Below, in pieces: positions 1,523 to 38,526 of a DNA stretch of 64,000 bases. The position numbers and the translations under genes were made by a program. Source of the DNA: Mycobacteriales bacterium (GTDB lineage Bacteria; Actinomycetota; Actinomycetes; JAFAQI01); the NCBI GenBank assembly GCA_035545635.1, contig DASZXY010000006.1:153882-217881 (forward strand), in the 5' to 3' direction. Position 1 is the first letter of the stretch, and each line of letters begins with the position of its first letter. Under the pieces are notes generated by a model, which did not search any database, had not been told where the DNA came from, and saw only the letters and a list, made by a program, of their open reading frames with translations.

Positions 1523-2737
1523 TCAGGAGCCGGATACGCGAAACGGTGTGCGGATCCAGGTTCGGCCGTTGTCGAAGCTGGTCACGAACGCCGGCAACCG
1601 GCCACTCGTGACCCCGACGATGTGGCTGGGGCTGATGTAGGCCGCGAAGGTCACGGCTCCAGGGACGTCAGCGCGGGTCCAGCGGTTGCCGTGCTGGTGG
1701 CTCAGGAATGGCGCGCCGGTCCCGGTCGTGATCAGGAACTCGTCGGGTGACCCTGCGGACAGGGAGCCGGCAAAGGCGCGCACATGCGGGACGTTGGCGA
1801 TGTTGGCCCAGTGGCCGCCGGCGTCGATCGACTCGAAGAGACTGCCGACGCCACGCGCGGGGGTGCACTCGGCGGCGAGGCCCTTCTCGCTCCAGGCGGC
1901 GAAGGCCTGGCCACCGCCGCCGCAGGGGTTCTCCGGGTGGCTCCAGCTGAACCCGTCGTTGAGGCTGGTCCACATGTCGTCACCACCGGTGACGTAGATC
2001 GTGTGTCCGCGCAGCGTGATGGCTGGGTCGACGTTGCCGATCGGCTTGACGGCGGTGACCGGCACCAACGTGGGGTCGGCCAGGGTGCCTTGGAACAGCT
2101 GCAACGTCCCGCACTGGATACACGAGCGGACCAGTGCCCAGATGACACCGTTCGAGGTTTCCAGGTCGGCGATGTAGCCGGGGCTGGTCAGCGTGCGCCA
2201 CACGACGCCGCCGTCATACGTCGCCTGGTACTCGTCGCCGAAGCTGAGGCCTTGCATCAGGTTGGCGAAGCGCACCGATCCTTGCGGCGGTGTGGTCGCC
2301 GCTTCGATCGTCCAGCTCGCGCCGGCGTTGTCCGTACGGGCCAGGCCACCCGCGACCGTGCCGCCGCGCACCCGCAGCGACCCGGTCACCCATCCCTCGG
2401 ACTGCGAGACGAAGCTCACGGCCTCCGGCACCAGGCGGTCGAGAGACGGCCGGACGATCGGGTTCAGCTGGTTGTCACCGAGCGTCGATGTCGAGTCGCT
2501 GTGCGGTGGCGACTGGGAGAAGTGGATCTGCTGGTTGTCACTCGACCCGCGGACGGCGAGCACCGCTGGTGTCGCGCCGGCCAGCAGCACGACACCGGCC
2601 AGGCCGGCGAGCATCCCCTTCGCCCGCTTGCGCCGGCGAGCGCGGCCGGAGATCGCGGCCCACGCGCCTTCCGGTGGATCGAGCTCTTCGCCGCGGCCGC
2701 GCAACAGGCCTTCGAAGTCGACGTCGTCGTGGTTCAT
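1523..2737 (-). CDS. single-pass membrane protein with extracytoplasmic Asp-box (BNR-like) beta-propeller; candidate anti-sigma/sensor partner of the upstream ECF sigma
   Basis: 404 aa. Short N-terminal cytoplasmic segment, then TM segment GMLAGLAGVVLLAGATPAVLAV. Three exact S/T-x-D-x-G-x-x-W boxes (TYDGGVVW, SIDAGGHW, SFDNGRTW) plus two degenerate ones. ATGA overlap (2734-2737) with the sigma gene. Confidence 0.7.
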   Translation of the reverse strand: MNHDDVDFEGLLRGRGEELDPPEGAWAAISGRARRRKRAKGMLAGLAGVVLLAGATPAVLAVRGSSDNQQIHFSQSPPHSDSTSTLGDNQLNPIVRPSLDRLVPEAVSFVSQSEGWVTGSLRVRGGTVAGGLARTDNAGASWTIEAATTPPQGSVRFANLMQGLSFGDEYQATYDGGVVWRTLTSPGYIADLETSNGVIWALVRSCIQCGTLQLFQGTLADPTLVPVTAVKPIGNVDPAITLRGHTIYVTGGDDMWTSLNDGFSWSHPENPCGGGGQAFAAWSEKGLAAECTPARGVGSLFESIDAGGHWANIANVPHVRAFAGSLSAGSPDEFLITTGTGAPFLSHQHGNRWTRADVPGAVTFAAYISPSHIVGVTSGRLPAFVTSFDNGRTWIRTPFRVSGS

Positions 2738-3267
2738 CGTGAGTCCTCGAGCAGCGTTTGCAGCCGCGCCCTCGCGTCGTACAGATCGCGCTTCACCGTG
2801 CCCGGCGCGACACCAAGCTCCCTAGCGACGGCCTCGATCGGCATGTCCGCGAAGTAATGGAGTACGACGACCTGCGAGAGCCGCCGCGGCAGCGTCTCGA
2901 CGAGCATTCGAAGCTCTGGTGCCGGCGCCGCGGCGCTGGCTGTGGCGGTCGCGGTCTTGCGCAGTGCGACTCGTTCGCGCTCGCTTCGGCGCCAGCGGTC
3001 GCGGATCAGGTTGAGAGCGGTGGTGTAGAGGTAGGCGCGCGGGTCGCTGACGGTGCTCCAGCGCCCGAGCAGCCGGACGAAGGCCTCGGCGGCGATGTCG
3101 TGCGCGACGTCGTCGTCGCCGATCATTCGGCGGCACCAGCCGGCGAGCGGGGCGTAGTGCAGCCGGAAGACCGCCTCACCGGTCGGTGCGGCATCCACCG
3201 GTGCAGCCTCCCCCACGCCACGAGAGAGCCCAGTATCGATCACCGGGACAACTGCGCTCACATCCAT
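2734..3267 (-). CDS. ECF (group 4) RNA polymerase sigma-70 family factor
   Basis: 177 aa. Region 2-like DDDVAHDIAAEAFVRLL...YLYTTALNLIRDRWRR and region 4-like LPRRLSQVVVLHYFADMPIEAVARELGVAPGTVKRDLYDARARL. Confidence 0.85.
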   Translation of the reverse strand: MDVSAVVPVIDTGLSRGVGEAAPVDAAPTGEAVFRLHYAPLAGWCRRMIGDDDVAHDIAAEAFVRLLGRWSTVSDPRAYLYTTALNLIRDRWRRSERERVALRKTATATASAAAPAPELRMLVETLPRRLSQVVVLHYFADMPIEAVARELGVAPGTVKRDLYDARARLQTLLEDSR

Positions 3268-3305
3268 CAGACGACCGGTGTGGGTTCCTGGTTGGTGGGA
3301 GTTTC

Positions 3306-4286
3306 CTAGCTGGGCGTCAGCAGGACCTTGCCGATGTGCTCGCCGTCCGCAACGAGGCGGTGGGCTTCCGCGACCTGGCTCATCGGGAGCGTCGTGTGGA
3401 TCGTCGGGCGCACCCTGCCCTCGGCGACGAGCGGCCAGAGTCCCTCTACTACGGCCTGGCAGATCGCTGCCTTCTCCGGCAGCGGGCGGGCGCGCAACGA
3501 CGTGGCGTGAACGCTGCCGCGCTTGGTCAGCAGCGAGGCGATGTCAAGCTCGCCGCGGGTCCCGCCTTGCATCCCGATGATGACCAGCCGGCCGTTCGTC
3601 GCCAGCGCAGTCACGTTGCGCTCGAGATACGCCGCACCCATCAGATCGAGGACCACGTCGGCTCCGCGCCCGTCGGTCGCTGTCATGGTCGCCTCGACGA
3701 AGTCCTCGTCGCGGTAGTTGATACCGACGTCGGCGCCGAGCTCCCGGCAGCGCGCGAGCTTCTCGGCAGAGCCGGCGGTCGTGAGGATGGTCGCACCGAG
3801 TGCCTTGCCGATCTGGATCGCCATCGTGCCGATTCCGCTGGCTCCGCCGTGGACGAGCAGCGTCTCGCCAGACCTGAGCGCCGCGAGCTGGACGACGTTA
3901 GACCAGACGGTGGCGCCGACCTCCGGAAGTGCGGCGGCCTTGAGCACGTCGACTCCCGGCGGGAGTGGCATCACCTGTCCGACGGGCGCCAACGCCCGCT
4001 CGGCCTGGCCACCGCCGGCGAGCAGGGCACAGACCTCGTCGCCGACCGACCAGCTCGTGACGCCGGGCCCGACCTGGACGATGCGTCCGCTGCACTCCAG
4101 GCCGAGGGTGTCCGTGACACCGGCAGGTGGGGGGTAGAAGCCCATCCGTTGCAGCAGGTCGGCCCGGTTGACGGCGCTGGCCGCGACCTCGATCACGACC
4201 TCGTCGGGGCCGGGGACCGGGTCTTCGATCTCGGTCCACTGCAAGACGTCGAGGTCTCCGCCGCCGCTGCACCGGACTGCTTTCAT
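3306..4286 (-). CDS. qor: NADPH:quinone oxidoreductase (zeta-crystallin / MDR family)
   Basis: 326 aa. EVVIEVAASAVNRADLLQRMGFYPPP, GDEVCALLAGGG, LLVHGGASGIGTMAIQIGKALGA (Rossmann). Confidence 0.85.
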   Translation of the reverse strand: MKAVRCSGGGDLDVLQWTEIEDPVPGPDEVVIEVAASAVNRADLLQRMGFYPPPAGVTDTLGLECSGRIVQVGPGVTSWSVGDEVCALLAGGGQAERALAPVGQVMPLPPGVDVLKAAALPEVGATVWSNVVQLAALRSGETLLVHGGASGIGTMAIQIGKALGATILTTAGSAEKLARCRELGADVGINYRDEDFVEATMTATDGRGADVVLDLMGAAYLERNVTALATNGRLVIIGMQGGTRGELDIASLLTKRGSVHATSLRARPLPEKAAICQAVVEGLWPLVAEGRVRPTIHTTLPMSQVAEAHRLVADGEHIGKVLLTPS

Positions 4287-31508: not shown

Positions 31509-31766
31509 ATGGCCGATCAGCCCGGAGTCGCGCCGAAGACATCCGAGACGGACCCGCCAGCGGCAGACCGGCCCGTCGAGGAGAGCCCGGGTAGCCCGCC
31601 GCCGAAGCCGTTCGAGGCGAAGGACGCAGCCGGTCGGGCTGCAAATGATCCCTCGCTCACGGAACGCGTCGTTCCTGAGGCGCTGCAGGCCTCTCGCGGC
31701 AAGCCGGACGGGGAGGTCGACACCGGAAACCGGAACCGACCTCCCGCCGAGGGCCTGTTCTCCTAG
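31509..31766 (+). CDS. small Pro/Asp/Glu-rich hypothetical protein
   Basis: 85 aa. ATG lies 2 nt after the hemerythrin stop. Appears disordered. Coding status supported only by position and GC3. Confidence 0.4.
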   Translation: MADQPGVAPKTSETDPPAADRPVEESPGSPPPKPFEAKDAAGRAANDPSLTERVVPEALQASRGKPDGEVDTGNRNRPPAEGLFS

Positions 31767-32551
31767 TTCTGGTTGTAGCTGAACCCGGTGATGCGCTGCT
31801 GGTCGCAGACTGCGGTGCCGTTCATGTACCAGTTGTAGATCCGGCTGCCGGCACCGTCTTCCGACACGTTGATCGACCAGGGCTTGCCGAGTGCGAGCGA
31901 TCCGTGCAGCTTACCGACGTACTCGGCAGCGGTTGTCTTGGTGACGGTGGAGCGCCCGTGCCGGCCGAGTTTGACCGTGCCTGAACCGCTCAGGTTCTGG
32001 CCGGGTGACTCAGGGTCCGACCCTGCGATGTAGGAGATGTGCACAGAGGTGCAGGGGTTGTCGGTCACCTTCAGTGCCGTGTAGTCCACGTCGTTGCTGA
32101 AGAACCGGAAGACGTAGGGGAACCGGCCGTCGTACTTGCCTGACTCACCCTTCGGAAGCTGGAACAGGGACTTCCACTTGACCGTGCCGAACACATGCAG
32201 CTTGCGGCCCTTCGGAGCTGTCGCGAACTTGCCGGAATGGGTGAAGACAGCGATTCGGAAGTCGTAGATGCCGACCGGCTCAGCCGGAATCGTCGTCTTC
32301 CCGCTGCCTTCGTGAAGGTGACGGAAGGTCTGCCAGCCGTTGGCCGAGCTGTATCCCTGAAGCACCACGCTGTCCTTGCCGACTCCGTGCGCATGCCAGT
32401 GCACCTTGGTCGGCTTGTTCGCGTGGGCGTGCGCCGGCACCTTGAACCCGATGTCCGGCGTACCGGCGGCGCTGACCGGTGTCGCGACCAGCGCCGTCGA
32501 GGCGGCAACAGCGATGCCGATCAGGGAAACGAGCTTTCGCACGGTGGACAT
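31763..32551 (-). CDS. secreted hypothetical protein (Lys-rich, His-cluster)
   Basis: Signal peptide MSTVRKLVSLIGIAVAASTALVATPVSAA. AHAHANKPTKVHWHAHG cluster. Visibly lower GC3 than its neighbours. Confidence 0.7.
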   Translation of the reverse strand: MSTVRKLVSLIGIAVAASTALVATPVSAAGTPDIGFKVPAHAHANKPTKVHWHAHGVGKDSVVLQGYSSANGWQTFRHLHEGSGKTTIPAEPVGIYDFRIAVFTHSGKFATAPKGRKLHVFGTVKWKSLFQLPKGESGKYDGRFPYVFRFFSNDVDYTALKVTDNPCTSVHISYIAGSDPESPGQNLSGSGTVKLGRHGRSTVTKTTAAEYVGKLHGSLALGKPWSINVSEDGAGSRIYNWYMNGTAVCDQQRITGFSYNQN

Positions 32552-32747
32552 TCCTCTCGTCAGGACCAGGCGGGACCGCGCCCAATCTCACACGCCCGGT
32601 GCGAACTATGGCAAGAGGGACCAGGTGACCCGACCGGAGGAGGCGGCGTGGTCACAAGTGATCAATGCCGTATTCAGGCCTTACCGCGCCGCTGTGTGCG
32701 GCGTTACCTTGACGCCAATAGGTCCAGCTCCCGGGAGATCAACAGCC

Positions 32748-33377
32748 ATGACGGCAGTCTTCATCGTCGACCGCTACGAGCTGGTTCGTCGTGGCGTGGT
32801 CGACTTGGTCGACCGCGCTGATGACATGCGCGTCACCGGCGAAGCAAGCGAGGCGGGTCAGGCGCTCGCCGCCATTCTTTCGACCCGGCCCCACGTCGTG
32901 GTGGTCGAGATTCGCAACGGTTACCGCGACGGTGTCGAGCTGTGTCGCGCGGTGGTGAGCAGTGGATGTGGAACCCGGTGTCTTCTGCTGGCCGACGACT
33001 CCGGCGAGGACCTCATGTTCGAGGCCATCACCGCAGGCGCAGCCGGATACCTGTTGGACCGTGCGAGCGGTGAGGACGTCCTCGCCGCGATCCGCACCGT
33101 CGCCAACGGGCGGTCGATCCTCGATCCCGCCTTGACCCACCGCGTCTTCGCGCGGCTGCGCACGATTGAACAGCCCACCCCCACCGGCCTGGCGGCACTC
33201 ACCCCGCAGGAGCGTCGGGTTCTCGACCACGTCTCGGCCGGCATGACGAACCGGCAGATCGCCCGCCAGTGCGGCATCGCGGAGAAGACCGTGAAGAACC
33301 ACGTGTCCGCGATTCTTCGCAAGCTGGAGTTCTCCAGCCGGACCCAGGCCGCGCTGTACGCCCGCGAAAGCGCCTGA
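32748..33377 (+). CDS. NarL/LuxR-family response regulator with degenerate (pseudo-)receiver
   Basis: Start ATG 32748 (GGGAG RBS). C-terminal LTPQERRVLDHVSAGMTNRQIARQCGIAEKTVKNHVSAILRKL LuxR HTH. Receiver positions read DR/E/A/D instead of DD/D/T/K. Confidence 0.8.
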   Translation: MTAVFIVDRYELVRRGVVDLVDRADDMRVTGEASEAGQALAAILSTRPHVVVVEIRNGYRDGVELCRAVVSSGCGTRCLLLADDSGEDLMFEAITAGAAGYLLDRASGEDVLAAIRTVANGRSILDPALTHRVFARLRTIEQPTPTGLAALTPQERRVLDHVSAGMTNRQIARQCGIAEKTVKNHVSAILRKLEFSSRTQAALYARESA

Positions 33378-33396
33378 GTCCTACCTGCGCCCTCCC

Positions 33397-33436
33397 GACG
33401 ACTCCGAGCACTCGCCTCGGAGTCGTCCCGTTTCGT
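33397..33436 (+). terminator. intrinsic-terminator-like hairpin after the LuxR-type gene
   Basis: Perfect 12-bp stem GACGACTCCGAG / CTCGGAGTCGTC, 7-nt loop, then CCGTTTCGT. Begins 20 nt after the stop. Confidence 0.6.
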
Positions 33437-33470
33437 ACGGCGATGCGCCGCTGTGTGCTGAATCAGATGT

Positions 33471-33482
33471 CCGACATGTCGG
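33471..33482. promoter_or_regulatory. perfect 12-bp palindrome CCGACATGTCGG in the sigma-gene leader
   Basis: Read directly. The sequence is its own reverse complement. Confidence 0.35.
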
Positions 33483-33504
33483 TCACCCCGCCCAGGGCGT
33501 TGGA

Positions 33505-33518
33505 CCTAGACGTCTAGG
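33505..33518. promoter_or_regulatory. perfect 14-bp palindrome CCTAGACGTCTAGG in the sigma-gene leader
   Basis: Read directly. Its own reverse complement. Contains two CTAG tetranucleotides. Confidence 0.35.
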
Positions 33519-33809
33519 ACCTTTGGCCGGGCGGCTCACGCGCCAGGGCTGGTGGGCCCTGCCCATTCCTGGTCCCTGGGCCATTCCACAGCAGTACCAG
33601 GGGGCTATGCCTTGTTGCTCCGAACCCCTCTTGAACGGTGACAAACCGGACCAAATGCGACCCGAGAGCCGATGACTAGTTCGGTCCTAGGCCCCTCGTG
33701 CGGCATCAAAAGGAGCTATTTAGTCCGCCGCTCGCGGTCGCCAATACTTCGTCGACGCCTGGACAAGGGCGGAGAAGGACGACCACGGTCGGACGAAAGG
33801 GGCGGCGCG

Positions 33810-34805
33810 ATGAATGAGGTCGCTGCTTATGAGCTGCGGGCCACGACGGCTGCGCGACGTGCGAAGACTCTGTCGCCGGAGGCGGCGAGACTGGTCGAGG
33901 AGCACTTGTCTTTGATCCCGGCGCTGACTGCGGGGATGGCAGCGCACTATCCGCGGCATGCTGACCGCGAGGAGCTGGCACAGGCCGCTGCACTCGGCTT
34001 GGTGGAAGCCGCGCTTCGGTTCGACCCGAGCCGTGGTGTGCCCTTCGACCGGTGGGCCGTGACCCGCGTGCGCGGCGCCGTCGTCGACGCGATCCGAGCC
34101 ATCGACTTCGCGCCGAGGTCGGTTCGTTCCCGCTCGCGCCACATCGACGCCGCGCACGAAGCACTGAGTCAGAACCTCGGCCGCACGCCGACCACCGAGG
34201 AACTGGCGGCAACGCTGGAGATGTCCGCGCGCGAGCTCGATGGCCACCGCGCCCGCCGCGACAGCGCGCGCGTCCTGTCGCTGGACGCCCCGGCGGTCAC
34301 CGGCGAGGGCACCACCACCGGTCTGGTTGATGTCTTGGTCGAGCTCGACGCACCGACTCCCGAAGCGGTTGTCGACGAGGCCGAGTCGCTCGCGCTGCTC
34401 GGAGCCGCGCTGCGACTGCTGCCGGAGCGGTTGCGACTCGTGATCGACGGCTATTTCGTCGCCGGTCGGACCTCCCTCGAGCTTGCCGACGAGCTCGGAG
34501 TCACCGAGTCCCGAATCGCGCAGATGCGCGCGGAAGGCCTGGCGATGATGCGGCAGGCGCTCGCCGGCCCGCTCGAGCGCAGGACTGCCGTCGATGGCAC
34601 TGTCGGCCGTCGTGCCGCACGCAGTCGTGAGGCGTACGTCGCCGCCGTCGCAGACGAAGCGGCCTCGCTGGCCCGGGGTGGTCGTTGCACGACGGTGCGG
34701 GCTGCAGCCACCGACGGTTCGACAGTCGCGGTGAGCATCCCGAGGCAGCGAACGGAGCTGCCGCGGGTCGACGTCGTACCGGTTGCTCGCCGTACCGCTG
34801 CCTGA
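33810..34805 (+). CDS. FliA/WhiG-type (group 3, sigma-28 family) sigma factor with about 79-aa C-terminal extension
   Basis: Start ATG 33810 (GAAAGGGG RBS). ELAQAAALGLVEAALRFDPSRGVPFDRWAVTRVRGAVVDAIR (region 2), FAPRSVRSRSRHIDAAHEAL (region 3), LPERLRLVIDGYFVAGRTSLELADELGVTESRIAQMRAEGL (region 4). Confidence 0.85.
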   Translation: MNEVAAYELRATTAARRAKTLSPEAARLVEEHLSLIPALTAGMAAHYPRHADREELAQAAALGLVEAALRFDPSRGVPFDRWAVTRVRGAVVDAIRAIDFAPRSVRSRSRHIDAAHEALSQNLGRTPTTEELAATLEMSARELDGHRARRDSARVLSLDAPAVTGEGTTTGLVDVLVELDAPTPEAVVDEAESLALLGAALRLLPERLRLVIDGYFVAGRTSLELADELGVTESRIAQMRAEGLAMMRQALAGPLERRTAVDGTVGRRAARSREAYVAAVADEAASLARGGRCTTVRAAATDGSTVAVSIPRQRTELPRVDVVPVARRTAA

Positions 34806-34817
34806 TCCGAGGGCGAC

Positions 34818-35549
34818 ATGAACCAGCTCACTCATTCGCCGTCCACGATCGCGATTGCTCCGGCGCAACGCCGGCGCTTCCGCGCCGGTGGTTATGGAGT
34901 CGTGGTGGTCGCCTCGTCCACTGGCGGCCCCGACGCGCTGCTGCAGGTACTTCCGCACTGGGACCTGAAGGTGCCGGTGCTCGTCGTTCAGCACATGCCT
35001 GCGGAGTTCACCCGTTCGCTGGCAGAGCGTCTGGACCGCGTCTGCCCGATGCGGGTCGCAGAGGCACGTGACGGAGAAGCCGTCGAACCCGGGTCGGTCC
35101 TGATCGCCCCCGGCGATTTGCACCTGCGCGTGCGAGGGACCGCGTCGCGGCCCGAGGTGTACCTCACCTACGGACCGCTCGTGAACAGCCTGCGACCCGC
35201 TGCCGACGTGACATTCGGCGACGCTGCGGCGGTGTGGGGCGCCGACGTACTCGCGCTCGTGCTCACCGGTATGGGCCGTGATGCGGTCGAGGGCGCGCGC
35301 GCCGTCGCAGCCGCCGGCGGGATGGTGCTCGCCCAGGATGAGCCGAGTTCCGCGGTGTGGGGAATGCCCGGCGAGGTCGTCGAGGCGGGACTTGCCACGG
35401 CTGTTCTGCCATTGGATCGCTTCGCGACGACCGTCCCGACGTTGTGCCGTGCTGTGCCGCAGCCGTCGGAGCCGTTCGAAGCGCCGGAGGCGGTCCAAAT
35501 CCCGGAGCAGGTCAGCCGCCGGCCCCTGCCTTCGACGCCCTACTTCTGA
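34818..35549 (+). CDS. cheB: CheB-type protein-glutamate methylesterase/deamidase, catalytic domain only (no receiver)
   Basis: VVVASSTGGPDAL (Ser), VLVVQHMPAEFT (His), LTGMGRDAVEG (Asp). 12 nt after the sigma stop, with a GAGGG RBS. Confidence 0.85.
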   Translation: MNQLTHSPSTIAIAPAQRRRFRAGGYGVVVVASSTGGPDALLQVLPHWDLKVPVLVVQHMPAEFTRSLAERLDRVCPMRVAEARDGEAVEPGSVLIAPGDLHLRVRGTASRPEVYLTYGPLVNSLRPAADVTFGDAAAVWGADVLALVLTGMGRDAVEGARAVAAAGGMVLAQDEPSSAVWGMPGEVVEAGLATAVLPLDRFATTVPTLCRAVPQPSEPFEAPEAVQIPEQVSRRPLPSTPYF

Positions 35550-35605: not shown

Positions 35606-36289
35606 GTGCTGCTGATTCTGGCGATCGTCGCGGCTGCGGGAGCCACCGCGGTTGCGGTGCGGTGGTGGGTCCGCCCGACCGACGCGATCGGGCGGCGCAA
35701 GAGGTTCCCGACGGTCAGCGTCGTCCTGCTATCAGTCATCGCGGTCGGGCTGGCCGCGCCGACCTGGTTGCGGCATCGCGAGGAAAGCCATCTGGGGAAA
35801 GCCGCTTCCGTCCTGGTCGGGCACCCCGCCACCGTCCACTGCCAGACCTTCGGGCAGACGTTCACCGACCTGTCCGGCGACCTCGGGTATGTGAAGTTCG
35901 GGCCCGACGGCCCCGAGCGTCACACGACGATCATGCGCGGGCCGTGTCGTGACCTTAAGCACTACTACGAAGGTGACCAGGCGCACCCGAGCGCGGCGGA
36001 GATCATCGCGGTTCACGTGCTGACACACGAGTCGATGCACATGCGCGGCGAGACGAACGAGGCAGTGACGGAGTGTGAGGCGATGCAGCGCGATGCGGAA
36101 ACCGCTCAGCTCCTCGGCGCGACACCGCAGGAGGGGCTGGCGCTGGCTCGCGCCTACTGGCTCATCGACTACCCGAACATGCCTGACACGTATCGAACTG
36201 GCGACTGCAAGCTGGGCGGCCCGCTCGACGAGCAGCTGCCGGACCCGCCGTGGACGTCCGGCGACTACGTCGCGCTGAAGCTCCCTTAA
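35606..36289 (+). CDS. N-terminally membrane-anchored protein with HExxH motif (putative zinc metallopeptidase-like)
   Basis: Start GTG 35606 gives VLLILAIVAAAGATAVAV anchor. VLTHESMHMRGE HExxH motif. The family is not recognised. Confidence 0.55.
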   Translation: MLLILAIVAAAGATAVAVRWWVRPTDAIGRRKRFPTVSVVLLSVIAVGLAAPTWLRHREESHLGKAASVLVGHPATVHCQTFGQTFTDLSGDLGYVKFGPDGPERHTTIMRGPCRDLKHYYEGDQAHPSAAEIIAVHVLTHESMHMRGETNEAVTECEAMQRDAETAQLLGATPQEGLALARAYWLIDYPNMPDTYRTGDCKLGGPLDEQLPDPPWTSGDYVALKLP

Positions 36290-37557
36290 CGAATGAAGAT
36301 CGGAGTGGTCAGCGACTCCATCAGCAGGTCGTCACGACACAGCGTGGTCTGCGACCCGATCACCTTGTCGCAGGTGTCGGTGCGCAGCTGACGGCCGTCG
36401 GGTTCGAGCAGCTCAGCGCGTACATAGACCGACGCCTTGGGAACTCCTGCGGTGCCGGGCCGGAAGGTGAGCGTTCCGGACGGCGGGAGGTCGACGAGCA
36501 CCGTCCCCTTGTCGGTCGTGATGCGCACCACCGAGCCGGGCAACGCGTTGATGGTGCGGACCCGGTACGCCGCCCCCGCCGTCGTCTCCGATCCGGCGAT
36601 CGCCTCGTAGTGGCCGTCGTGGTGGGCGTCGGCCTCGAGATACATCTGCGCGCCGAGCTGGCTCGGCGGCAGATCCGAGACGAACGTGTGGTGGGCGCGT
36701 AGCCCGTCGAGCACCCCCTGGATCGTCCGGTGCGTGACGTAGACCCACGTCGTCGGATCGCCGATGCCCTGAACGCTGTCAGTGAGTCGCCAGTGGGAGT
36801 CGCTGCCACCGGTTGCCGCGATCTCGTCGCCGCGCTGAAGGAATCCGTCGTACCAACGAAGTGAGAAGTTGTTGTCGTTGGCACTGGGCAGCGGATGCTG
36901 GAATGCCCACGGCCCGATGTTCCAGACCTCGATCGTGTCAGGCACAACTTCGCGCCGGTAGGCGTGCAGCCAGTTCAGGTCGCTCGGATGATTGATCTGG
37001 AACACCCCGCCGTTGCGTCGCAGGCCGTTCGCCAGCTCCCGCATCCCGTGCACCGACTTGTCCTTCGGCGCGGCGTCGCACTCGACGAGCTGGTGGCGGA
37101 TCGGCCCGTGATTGCCGTAGCAGGAGCGGGCGCCGAGCATCTGGACATGGCCGGCCTGCGAGTTCTCGTATCCCGGGATCGATACGAAGTCGGGGTGGGC
37201 TTTCTGCCAGGCGAGGACGGCGGGGTCGGTCTGGTTCATGACGTTGTTGTGGTCGGTGATCGCCACGAAACCGAGTCCGCGCTGCCGCGCTTCGTTCAGC
37301 CGGTCCGCGGGCGGAAAACCCCAGGTGTAGGAGTCCGCACACGGGCGCCGAGCCGCGAGGGATGGCTTCGTGTAGTCCCAGGCGGTGGTGGGGGTGATGC
37401 AGGTGTCGTGGCCATAGATCGTGTGCACGTGCAGGTCGCCGGGGATCCAGTACCCGTGTGGTGCCGTGACAGGGGAATGGTGGGCCGCGGCCGCGGGAAC
37501 CGTCAGGGTGAGCGCAGCCGCGACAGCGATACCGAAGATCAAGCGGGCGCCTCGCAC
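36286..37557 (-). CDS. secreted PHP-domain (CehA/McbA-like) metallohydrolase
   Basis: Signal peptide RGARLIFGIAVAAALTLTVPAAAA, GDLHVHT, VAITDHNN, GGSDSH. Start GTG 37557 preferred; ATG 37647 is possible. The first 225 aa of ORF 36286-38232 are rejected. Confidence 0.8.
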   Translation of the reverse strand: MRGARLIFGIAVAAALTLTVPAAAAHHSPVTAPHGYWIPGDLHVHTIYGHDTCITPTTAWDYTKPSLAARRPCADSYTWGFPPADRLNEARQRGLGFVAITDHNNVMNQTDPAVLAWQKAHPDFVSIPGYENSQAGHVQMLGARSCYGNHGPIRHQLVECDAAPKDKSVHGMRELANGLRRNGGVFQINHPSDLNWLHAYRREVVPDTIEVWNIGPWAFQHPLPSANDNNFSLRWYDGFLQRGDEIAATGGSDSHWRLTDSVQGIGDPTTWVYVTHRTIQGVLDGLRAHHTFVSDLPPSQLGAQMYLEADAHHDGHYEAIAGSETTAGAAYRVRTINALPGSVVRITTDKGTVLVDLPPSGTLTFRPGTAGVPKASVYVRAELLEPDGRQLRTDTCDKVIGSQTTLCRDDLLMESLTTPIFIR

Positions 37558-37620: not shown

Positions 37621-38526
37621 ATGTCCGACTCGGCTGGTATCGACCATGCCCGTGCGACACGCTTGCTGCGTATCGCGCTGGGTTTGGCGATCTGTCTCGT
37701 CGCCCTGATGGGCACTGTCGTCGTCGCGGCGACCCCGCGCGGGCCGGGACCGGCGCAAGTGCGAGAGATCGACGCCTCGAATGTCGGCTTGGCGGCGCAC
37801 GCGATCGTGCAGCAGGCCGTGGACTCCGGCGCACTTCTCGCCGAGCCCGACGACATCGATGGACATCCTGCGGCCGCGATCATGACCGCGGTCTACGCGT
37901 TGCTGCAGAAGGCGCGCAACGACGACCCGAGCCTCGCCCTCACCGACACCAGCGAGCTGATGGGCCCCGTTCCCTGGAACCTGAGCCACCCGCTGCGCCC
38001 CCGGGCCAGGCATCGTCGGGTCACGGTGACCCACACGCTTCGCCGGTTCGAGCATGCGGTGCACGTCGGAACGTCGCGCGGATTCGGAATGCATCGCCGT
38101 CACGACCACGTCCTGCCGGCGCCGCGCCAGCGGCCCGACGGCGTTTACGTCGACCCGGCGTTGCCCCCGCTGCCGACAGACGCCTCGGTGGCGATGGTCG
38201 CGATCCGTGCCGCGATGTCGAAGCTCGGCCATCCCTACGTGTGGGCCGCCGCAGGCCCTGACACCTTTGACTGCTCAGGTCTGGTTCGGTGGGCCTACGG
38301 CAAGGCCGGCGTACCGCTGCTGCACTACACCGGCTTCCAGTGGAACGAAGGCAGGCGCGTCCCGGCTCACGACGTGCTTCCGGGCGACCTGATCCTGTTC
38401 TACAAGTCACTGAGCCACGTCGGCATCTACCTCGGTTCCGGGTGGATGCTCAACGCGCCCTACACCGGGCAGTACGTCAGCGTGATGCCGGTGCACGGCA
38501 AGGTCGCCGGCATCGTTCGTCCCTGA
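37621..38526 (+). CDS. NlpC/P60 family peptidoglycan endopeptidase
   Basis: N-terminal TM/signal anchor. C-terminal FDCSGLVRWAYGKAG...GDLILF...SHVGIYLG (Cys-His catalytic pattern). Confidence 0.85.
   Translation: MSDSAGIDHARATRLLRIALGLAICLVALMGTVVVAATPRGPGPAQVREIDASNVGLAAHAIVQQAVDSGALLAEPDDIDGHPAAAIMTAVYALLQKARNDDPSLALTDTSELMGPVPWNLSHPLRPRARHRRVTVTHTLRRFEHAVHVGTSRGFGMHRRHDHVLPAPRQRPDGVYVDPALPPLPTDASVAMVAIRAAMSKLGHPYVWAAAGPDTFDCSGLVRWAYGKAGVPLLHYTGFQWNEGRRVPAHDVLPGDLILFYKSLSHVGIYLGSGWMLNAPYTGQYVSVMPVHGKVAGIVRP

Follow-up and report, generated by a model that had tools for sequence, protein, structure and literature searches.

What keeps a CheB-type methylesterase/deamidase encoded directly behind a sigma-28 factor when flagellar and other chemotaxis genes are missing around it? 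This question is raised by a 64-kb window (the whole stretch of DNA analyzed here, from contig DASZXY010000006.1; high-GC, 65-71% G+C) of an uncultured soil Frankiaceae-like actinobacterium (GTDB order Mycobacteriales), in which an atypical response regulator, a sigma-28 family factor, and a CheB catalytic domain are encoded on the same strand. Open reading frames and translations agreed with the initial annotation on the position and nature of all three genes. Comparison with related loci showed that the three genes are what is left of the two margins of a flagellar and chemotaxis island deleted in the lineage of the window, and gene order identifies the sigma-cheB adjacency as the scar of that deletion, which joined fliA to the middle of cheB. 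The module comprises the following features:

32748..33377, + strand: NarL/DosR-type atypical response regulator (RR), 209 aa, with a pseudo-receiver and a GerE helix-turn-helix
33810..34805, + strand: 331-aa factor of the sigma-28 family (FliA/WhiG type) containing regions 2, 3, and 4
34806..34817, + strand: junction (deletion scar), 12 nt from the sigma stop to the CheB start, with a GAGGG Shine-Dalgarno motif
34818..34886, + strand: variable leader at the N-terminus of the truncated CheB, derived from the last part of the former receiver-catalytic linker
34887..35456, + strand: CheB methylesterase/deamidase catalytic core (PF01339) with an intact Ser-His-Asp triad
35457..35549, + strand: clade-specific C-terminal tail PxPSEPFExPE..IPEQ..R.P...PYF-COOH

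Gene Order at Related Loci

Related loci were gathered by exact-protein look-ups and one genome scan, and all belonged to uncultured soil metagenome-assembled genomes (MAGs) of the Mycobacteriales or Frankiaceae. A shared left flank (genes for DUF72, GH15, luciferase-like, DUF1360, and hemerythrin proteins, a 256-262-aa secreted protein on the minus strand, and the 209-aa regulator) and a shared right flank (NlpC/P60, a ~230-250-aa gene on the minus strand, ECF sigma, Gmad2, ABC transporter, and phosphoesterase) were common to the loci, and four states were distinguished between these flanks. State 1 is flagellated and was represented by GCA_035550655.1 (loci L006, L112, and L005) and by locus L111, which stems from the soil study that also yielded the window. 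Its order is RR, fliW, (csrA), and sigma followed by a convergent flagellar operon (fliE-F-G-H-I, fliK, flgD, flgE, flbD, motAB, fliMNOPQR, and flhBA), of which at least 20 kb was seen on a contig that extends 15 kb more. In GCA_035550655.1, L006 carries RR-FliW-sigma and then FlhA...MotA while L112 carries FliE...FlgE-FlbD, and L111 is ordered RR-FliW-CsrA-sigma-FlhA. At another contig end of GCA_035550655.1 (L005), genes for a methyl-accepting chemotaxis protein (MCP), full-length cheB, cheY, cheR, and cheX are followed directly by NlpC/P60, the first gene of the shared right flank, and then by ECF sigma, Gmad2, ABC transporter, and phosphoesterase genes.

State 2 comprises the window, GCA_035547035.1 (L002), DASZTL01, CAZEAM01, GCA_051959585.1, and Logan contigs, with the order RR, sigma, receiver-less cheB, a gene for a 227-231-aa HExxH membrane protein, CehA/McbA on the minus strand, and NlpC/P60. 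Recurrence of the sigma-cheB adjacency elsewhere, which the initial annotation had proposed as a check, was thus found: the RR-sigma-receiver-less CheB arrangement occurs in at least five assemblies and in several metagenome contigs, and is therefore not a chance adjacency. State 3 (GCA_025980775.1 and GCA_025929365.1) has the State 2 order minus cheB. In State 4 (L113), the regulator and sigma genes are followed by unrelated metabolic genes; positions 1607-3405 of this locus (JGI Ga0466951_0005395) code for the regulator and a 286-aa sigma of the same clade, with aldehyde dehydrogenase and amidohydrolase genes thereafter. In L113, the pair thus seems to have survived in a second lineage that has no flagellar genes close to it. 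In L013, from a less closely related Mycobacteriales MAG, fliA heads a 265aa-cheA-cheW-cheY-cheB-cheR-cheX series on one strand, showing that a fliA gene upstream of cheB is normal in this order.

The initial annotation had also reported that no other chemotaxis or flagellar gene lies near the module. This was borne out over the 64-kb window by tblastn with 33 chemotaxis and flagellar proteins from the relatives (MCP, CheA/W/Y/R/X, FliW, FliF/G/H/I/K/M/N/O/P/Q/R, FlgD/E, FlbD, MotA/B, and FlhA/B), for which the sole match was the paralogous NlpC/P60 gene. Remnants of FliW, CheY, CheR, and CheX were not found in the window spacers.

Origin of the Adjacency

A maximum-likelihood tree of the CheB catalytic domain placed the 17 receiver-less CheBs in one clade (98/93), sister to the two full-length State 1 CheBs P0027 and P0028 (99/93), and these together were split from other actinobacterial CheBs at 100/99. 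The tree indicates that the receiver was lost once, from the syntenic cheB. Homology between the truncated protein and full-length P0027 starts at P0027 residue 146, within the linker. In the sigma tree the State 1 sigmas were basal, and the State 3 sigma was nested among those of State 2 next to that of GCA_051959585.1, whose sigma-cheB adjacency was verified in its locus; the cheB remnant was therefore lost secondarily in State 3.

By these gene orders, the lineage of the window has lost fliW/csrA, all flagellar genes, the MCP gene, and the first ~145 cheB codons (the receiver and most of the linker), with cheY-cheR-cheX likewise deleted, so that only 12 nt now separate the sigma stop from the CheB catalytic domain, which has its own ATG and Shine-Dalgarno motif. 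After this single receiver loss, purifying selection maintained the remnant while its carriers diverged to the level of species and genera; it gained a conserved C-terminal tail and was later lost in one sub-lineage. The fallback reading of the initial annotation, that a chemosensory remnant is now tied to the sigma factor, was essentially right as judged by synteny and purifying selection.

Island deletion, after which the remnant became part of the sigma operon and was kept by selection, is considered the probable overall explanation of the locus. Several points weigh against it. The genes for the 227-aa and CehA-like proteins were not seen in the examined parts of the flagellated relative, leaving at least one further rearrangement unexplained, and loss of the truncated CheB in one sub-lineage shows it to be dispensable there. 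Synonymous divergence (dS) near saturation makes the ratios of nonsynonymous to synonymous divergence (dN/dS) approximate. The search for RNA evidence found carrier sequence in soil DNA runs alone, and we infer the operon structure from the DNA. Conserved sigma-28-type promoters were found neither in the window nor in the related loci, and the present regulon of the sigma factor is thus not indicated. The absence of chemotaxis and flagellar genes covers the 64-kb window, and MCPs, a second chemotaxis system, or a paralogous CheR are possibly encoded elsewhere in the genome, while the CheR census described below sees orthologues of the relative's CheR.

The Receiver-Less CheB

The truncated CheB has 243 aa and matched CheB_methylest (PF01339) alone (E 1.9e-56, 191 bits, 172/174 profile positions), with no Response_reg match and no receiver-coding remnant upstream in any frame. 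Its scores against the NCBIfam CheB models (218 and 178 bits) were below the cut-offs of 293 and 342. In a CheB alignment of 22 sequences (A1), where the receiver-less members represent 17 distinct 90%-identity clusters, the triad S34 (SSTGG), H59 (QHMP), and D155 (GMGRD) was invariant and was included in a total of 52 invariant columns. Judged by their motifs, these residues presumably correspond to Ser164-His190-Asp286 in Salmonella numbering. Open reading frames, Pfam, and alignment hence agree with the described CheB catalytic domain that has an intact triad, lacks a receiver, and starts 12 nt after the sigma gene.

The AlphaFold2 model of the core had predicted local distance difference test values >90, and Foldseek gave template modeling (TM) scores of 0.93 to 3sft and 0.87 to 1chd; the core superposed on 3sft, 1chd, and 1a2o with TM scores of 0.87-0.93 and a root-mean-square deviation of 1.6 A. 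The protein thus has the same catalytic domain, triad, and fold as the CheBs of Escherichia coli/Salmonella (1A2O and 1CHD) and Thermotoga maritima (3SFT). Unlike these, it has no receiver and so no phospho-control, it carries a new disordered PYF tail, and its gene follows that of a sigma-28 factor in surroundings that contain no MCP, CheA, CheW, or CheR gene. The receiver inhibits CheB, and its deletion activates the E. coli enzyme, although receptor binding by the catalytic domain on its own is weak (PMC8609364).

Possible Role of the Retained CheB

Freed of the inhibitory receiver, the truncated CheB would be a permanently "open" glutamyl-methylesterase/glutamine-deamidase whose amount is set by transcription and by translational coupling to the sigma factor rather than by CheA phosphorylation, and its tail may serve to dock the enzyme onto a partner or substrate. 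An orthologue census was made in a 5.8-billion-protein database as a proxy for a genome search, one that detects orthologues only and to which paralogous systems are invisible, and it returned four clusters for the relative's CheR at ≥78% identity (the next at ≤61%) vs. ~25 clusters for the receiver-less CheB and ~24 for the sigma factor at 65-88% identity. The State 2 lineages therefore seem to be without the cognate methyltransferase, which argues against classical methylation-demethylation adaptation. This distribution leaves deamidation or action on another protein, and makes deamidation, or the de-esterification of a receptor-like protein that is residual or non-canonical, appear likelier than classical adaptation. 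A bolder proposal, which we hold to be possible but somewhat doubtful, is that these non-flagellated lineages have no chemoreceptors and that the CheB domain has been exapted as a transcriptionally controlled deamidase/methylesterase that would reach a non-chemoreceptor target via its PYF tail, in the operon of a re-used former flagellar sigma.

Alternatively, the truncated CheB could be an ordinary enzyme working on canonical MCPs encoded elsewhere in the genome, the sigma adjacency being an accident of gene order. The precedent is Campylobacter jejuni, in which CheB is naturally receiver-less and works in normal chemotaxis (PMC3879368), and the strong constraint on the catalytic core together with the 64-kb extent of the negative search result is in keeping with such a role. 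The C. jejuni enzyme is likewise a catalytic domain only and a normal expressed protein; however, that bacterium keeps flagella, MCPs (Tlps), CheA, CheW/V, and CheR, whereas here the source island was deleted with its MCP, cheY, cheR, and cheX, the loss of the receiver was independent, and the cognate CheR is apparently absent. An ordinary chemotactic role is considered unlikely given that orthologous CheR occurs in only ~4 related lineages compared to ~25 for the truncated CheB, that the window has no chemotaxis or flagellar gene besides the module, and that a new conserved tail and an elevated dN (0.26-0.32 between receiver-less and full-length CheBs compared to 0.21 for sigma and 0.15-0.17 for NlpC/P60 in the same genome pairs) suggest a changed interaction. 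The raised CheB dN fits changed constraints after domain loss.

Less probable still is that the truncated gene is an inert leftover, open by chance or by its place in the sigma transcript and on the way to being lost. It did arise by deletion, a nested sub-lineage (L007/L008) has lost cheB cleanly, and the closest carriers to that sub-lineage (P0022 and P0024) have a degenerate tail. An inert reading frame is nevertheless difficult to reconcile with the 17 of 17 clusters (90% identity) that keep an open frame, the triad, and the 52 invariant columns. Pairwise whole-gene Nei-Gojobori estimates from four State 2 orthologues gave a dN/dS of 0.07-0.22 for the receiver-less CheB at dS 0.8-1.5, a range near saturation that makes the values approximate, and this was no higher than for sigma (0.13-0.33), NlpC/P60 (0.15-0.25), or the HExxH protein (0.16-0.34). 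Every orthologue has its own start codon and a GAGG-like Shine-Dalgarno motif 5-20 nt after the sigma stop despite a leader that varies from 4 to 26 aa, is disordered in the model, and is weakly constrained (ratio of nonsynonymous to synonymous differences per site, pN/pS, of 0.4-0.6 compared to 0.10-0.27 for the core). The tail is conserved in ~14 of the 17 receiver-less members and absent from the full-length CheBs, and its synonymous divergence equals that of the core while its pN/pS is 0.2-0.55; amino acids are thus conserved despite synonymous change, indicating that the constraint acts on the protein. Disorder of the tail in the AlphaFold2 model fits a docking motif. Mimicry of the MCP NWETF-type pentapeptide by the PYF end was also considered, but there is no Trp at position -4 and such mimicry is not claimed. 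The low dN/dS, invariant triad, kept start codon and ribosome binding site, and constrained tail together point to a functional protein and not a pseudogene, and the truncated CheB probably still works and is retained by selection, being dispensable in one sub-lineage.

The Sigma Factor and Its C-Terminal Extension

The top NCBIfam match of the sigma factor was TIGR02479 FliA_WhiG, but the score of 151.6 bits falls short of the curated cut-off of 189.6, which sets the factor apart from the WhiG1-clade sigmas and Streptomyces WhiG; the WhiG equivalog scored 138.5 bits against a cut-off of 343. In the flagellated relatives, the sigma orthologues (P0139 and P0140) lie beside fliW(-csrA) and are convergent with the flhA...fliE flagellar operon. 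The description as a developmental-type sigma in the initial annotation is not borne out by this context, in which the orthologue adjoins fliW-csrA and the flagellar export operon. Actinobacterial WhiG homologues have been divided into a WhiG1 clade associated with flagellar clusters and a WhiG2 clade controlled by RsiG (Denis et al. 2026 preprint, PMC12871210). As with the WhiG1-clade sigmas (PMC12871210), the factor is by its best match a sigma-28 family member and its relatives' orthologues are within a few genes of the flagellar cluster, so that by gene context the window sigma behaves like an orthologue of flagellar FliA of the WhiG1 type. Like Streptomyces WhiG, the sigma factor was kept by a lineage that deleted the flagellar cluster next to it, as seen at this locus.

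Sigma regions 2 and 4 are nearly unchanged between the flagellated and non-flagellated lineages, from which promoter specificity probably remained unchanged after flagellar loss. Searches of the window for sigma-28 motifs (TAAA-N14-17-GCCGATAA, T[AC]AA-N16-GCCGA, and CT[CT]A-N16-17-GCCGA) revealed no enrichment, with three found vs. ~2 expected. Isolated matches in L002 and L111 were not kept at orthologous positions, and one CTTA-N16-GCCGACA was present upstream of flbD in the flagellated relative. No FlgM-like Pfam match was found among the neighbor proteins scanned.

A C-terminal extension of ~79 aa follows sigma region 4 (34566-34805). It is equally conserved in the flagellated relative, which has a normal CheB, in relatives with the CheB remnant, and in those without CheB, and its core RRAA.xR..Y.AAL..xS....RL is common to homologues that are only 46-50% identical in many other actinobacterial MAGs. 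The D-E pair of the AAVADEAASL segment is not conserved (ADE / ADQ / AKR / AEQ, with A-x-x-S in others), the extension contains no Glu/Gln pair in an MCP-like heptad context, and no receiver remnant is hidden in the corresponding 3' sequence of the sigma gene. The extension hence appears to be a family-wide feature rather than a substrate that co-evolved with the CheB remnant. The suggestion of the initial annotation that the truncated CheB modifies this extension and thereby controls sigma activity has in its favor the adjacent and probably translationally coupled genes and the extension itself, but is very improbable because the extension is conserved with or without CheB and in distant homologues and its Asp-Glu pair is variable.

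The Atypical Regulator and the Spacer

The regulator matched GerE at 71 bits and Response_reg weakly at 39.5 bits, and its best named matches (NarL, MadR, and DevR) were each below the equivalog cut-off. Alignment to DevR (PDB 3c3w, E 1e-43) gave a pocket of D8-R9-E54-A82-D104 compared to the canonical D-D-D-T-K. The degenerate pocket was invariant in six regulator orthologues, and the pocket and the whole protein are kept in the flagellated, CheB-remnant, and CheB-less relatives (dN/dS 0.08-0.18, approximate as above). As the flagellated relative shares it, the degenerate pocket is not a consequence of flagellar loss. The NarL/GerE architecture is that of Streptomyces WhiI/BldM and of DevR/DosR (3C3W, the closest solved structure), and the degenerate phospho-acceptor pocket and genetic association with a sigma-28-type factor are further likenesses to the atypical WhiI/BldM. 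Unlike WhiI, the regulator here lies upstream of the sigma gene, was already degenerate in flagellated relatives, and has no sigma-28-type promoter before its gene. The initial label "whiI-like" therefore stands by analogy for the NarL family and the degenerate pocket, but not for control by the sigma factor: across eight loci, the region upstream of the regulator gene is conserved without a conserved sigma-28-type motif (a single CTCA-N17-GCCGA in L111 was missing from the other seven), and the Streptomyces direction from WhiG to whiI is not indicated. A strongly conserved block at 32640-32747, directly before the regulator gene, was present in all eight loci as GTGGTCACAAGTGATCAAAGCC.ATTTCAGGCCTAACGC-N8-10-GCGTTACTTTGACGCC and includes a TAACGC/GCGTTA inverted repeat. 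By gene order, the regulator and sigma-28 pair, and not the triple, is the stable ancestral module, one that outlives flagella in at least two lineages.

The spacer between the regulator and sigma genes (regulator and fliW in the flagellated state) was aligned for six loci covering States 1-3, and contains three elements:

33502..33521, unstranded: 20-bp palindrome GGACCTAGACGTCTAGGACC, candidate operator, with columns invariant or nearly so in the six loci and all three states
33683..33693, unstranded: second GGTCCTAGGCC, which repeats the GGTCCTAGG(CC) half-site and ends up ~25 nt before the putative -35
33719..33748, + strand: putative housekeeping-type promoter TTTAGT-N18-AATACT for the sigma operon, read by eye

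The sequence GCTATTTAG...CAATACT was invariant in 6/6 aligned loci, and a strict consensus promoter scan made no sigma-70 call, including for TTTAGT-N18-AATACT. In the flagellated relatives, the same palindrome, half-site, and promoter-like block precedes fliW; the window has kept, upstream of its sigma gene, a non-coding block of 70 nt that precedes fliW in the flagellated relative, and the second half-site (33683-33693) falls inside it. From this conservation we infer a housekeeping-type promoter controlled by a palindrome-binding protein, for which the neighboring DosR-like regulator is the obvious candidate. The sigma factor, the CheB catalytic domain, and perhaps the HExxH membrane protein would then form one transcript from a conserved promoter flanked by GGTCCTAGG palindromes that are probably bound by the adjacent, phosphorylation-independent NarL/DosR-type regulator.

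Neighboring Genes

Four further genes in the window flank the module:

31763..32551, - strand: 262-aa protein with a predicted signal peptide, left-flank marker, no Pfam/NCBIfam match
35606..36289, + strand: 227-aa membrane-anchored protein with an HExxH motif (THESMH) and an N-terminal helix, no Pfam/NCBIfam match
36286..37500, - strand: CehA/McbA-family (PHP-like) metallohydrolase (NCBIfam NF038032, 115.5 bits, cut-off 80)
37621..38526, + strand: NlpC/P60 peptidase, right-flank marker, 80% identical to the gene directly after cheX in the flagellated relative

Orthologues of the 262-aa protein were 57-69% identical (tblastn), and throughout States 1-3 this gene and that of the regulator are divergently oriented. 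The 227-aa gene lies 34-58 nt after CheB (after sigma in the CheB-less relatives) in all non-flagellated relatives, and a consensus scan identified no terminator between it and CheB or inside the operon; judged by this spacing, the HExxH protein is possibly the third cistron of the sigma operon. The CehA/McbA orthologues were 82-86% identical, and in the window the gene is convergent with the operon and overlaps its end by 4 nt. In the flagellar operon of the relative, L112 5137-6141 codes for a NlpC/P60+SLT fusion that is probably a FlgJ-like rod-cap hydrolase, the NlpC part of which is 45% identical to the right-flank NlpC/P60 gene. On the minus strand of L005 (5980-6864), an AbiEi_1/DUF559 gene lies between the ~248-aa gene and ECF sigma and was not present in the lineage of the window. 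An Rfam scan of 31-38 kb gave no match, and a metagenome scan with the truncated CheB protein returned distant full-length CheBs only.

Significance

Receiver-less CheBs and sigma-28 factors kept after flagellar loss are both known kinds, and the locus is a variant of these and not a new class. It offers a rare traceable series in close soil actinobacteria, from flagellated, through island deleted with a CheB remnant, to remnant lost, with the regulator-sigma pair alone elsewhere. Survival of a flagellar sigma and its partner regulator after deletion of the adjacent cluster is the step from which Streptomyces WhiG is believed to have arisen, and the truncated cheB represents a domain-loss allele of a two-component enzyme that was captured by a new transcription unit and selectively kept. 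If chemoreceptors are encoded elsewhere in the carrier genomes, the protein would be a second, independent C. jejuni-like receiver-less CheB. If these genomes are truly without chemoreceptors, the substrate would lie outside chemotaxis and widen the biology of CheB-type deamidases/esterases, and, should the exaptation be true, no CheB-family enzyme would have been seen to work outside a chemosensory pathway before this one, and the locus would capture the transition from a FliA to a WhiG-like factor.

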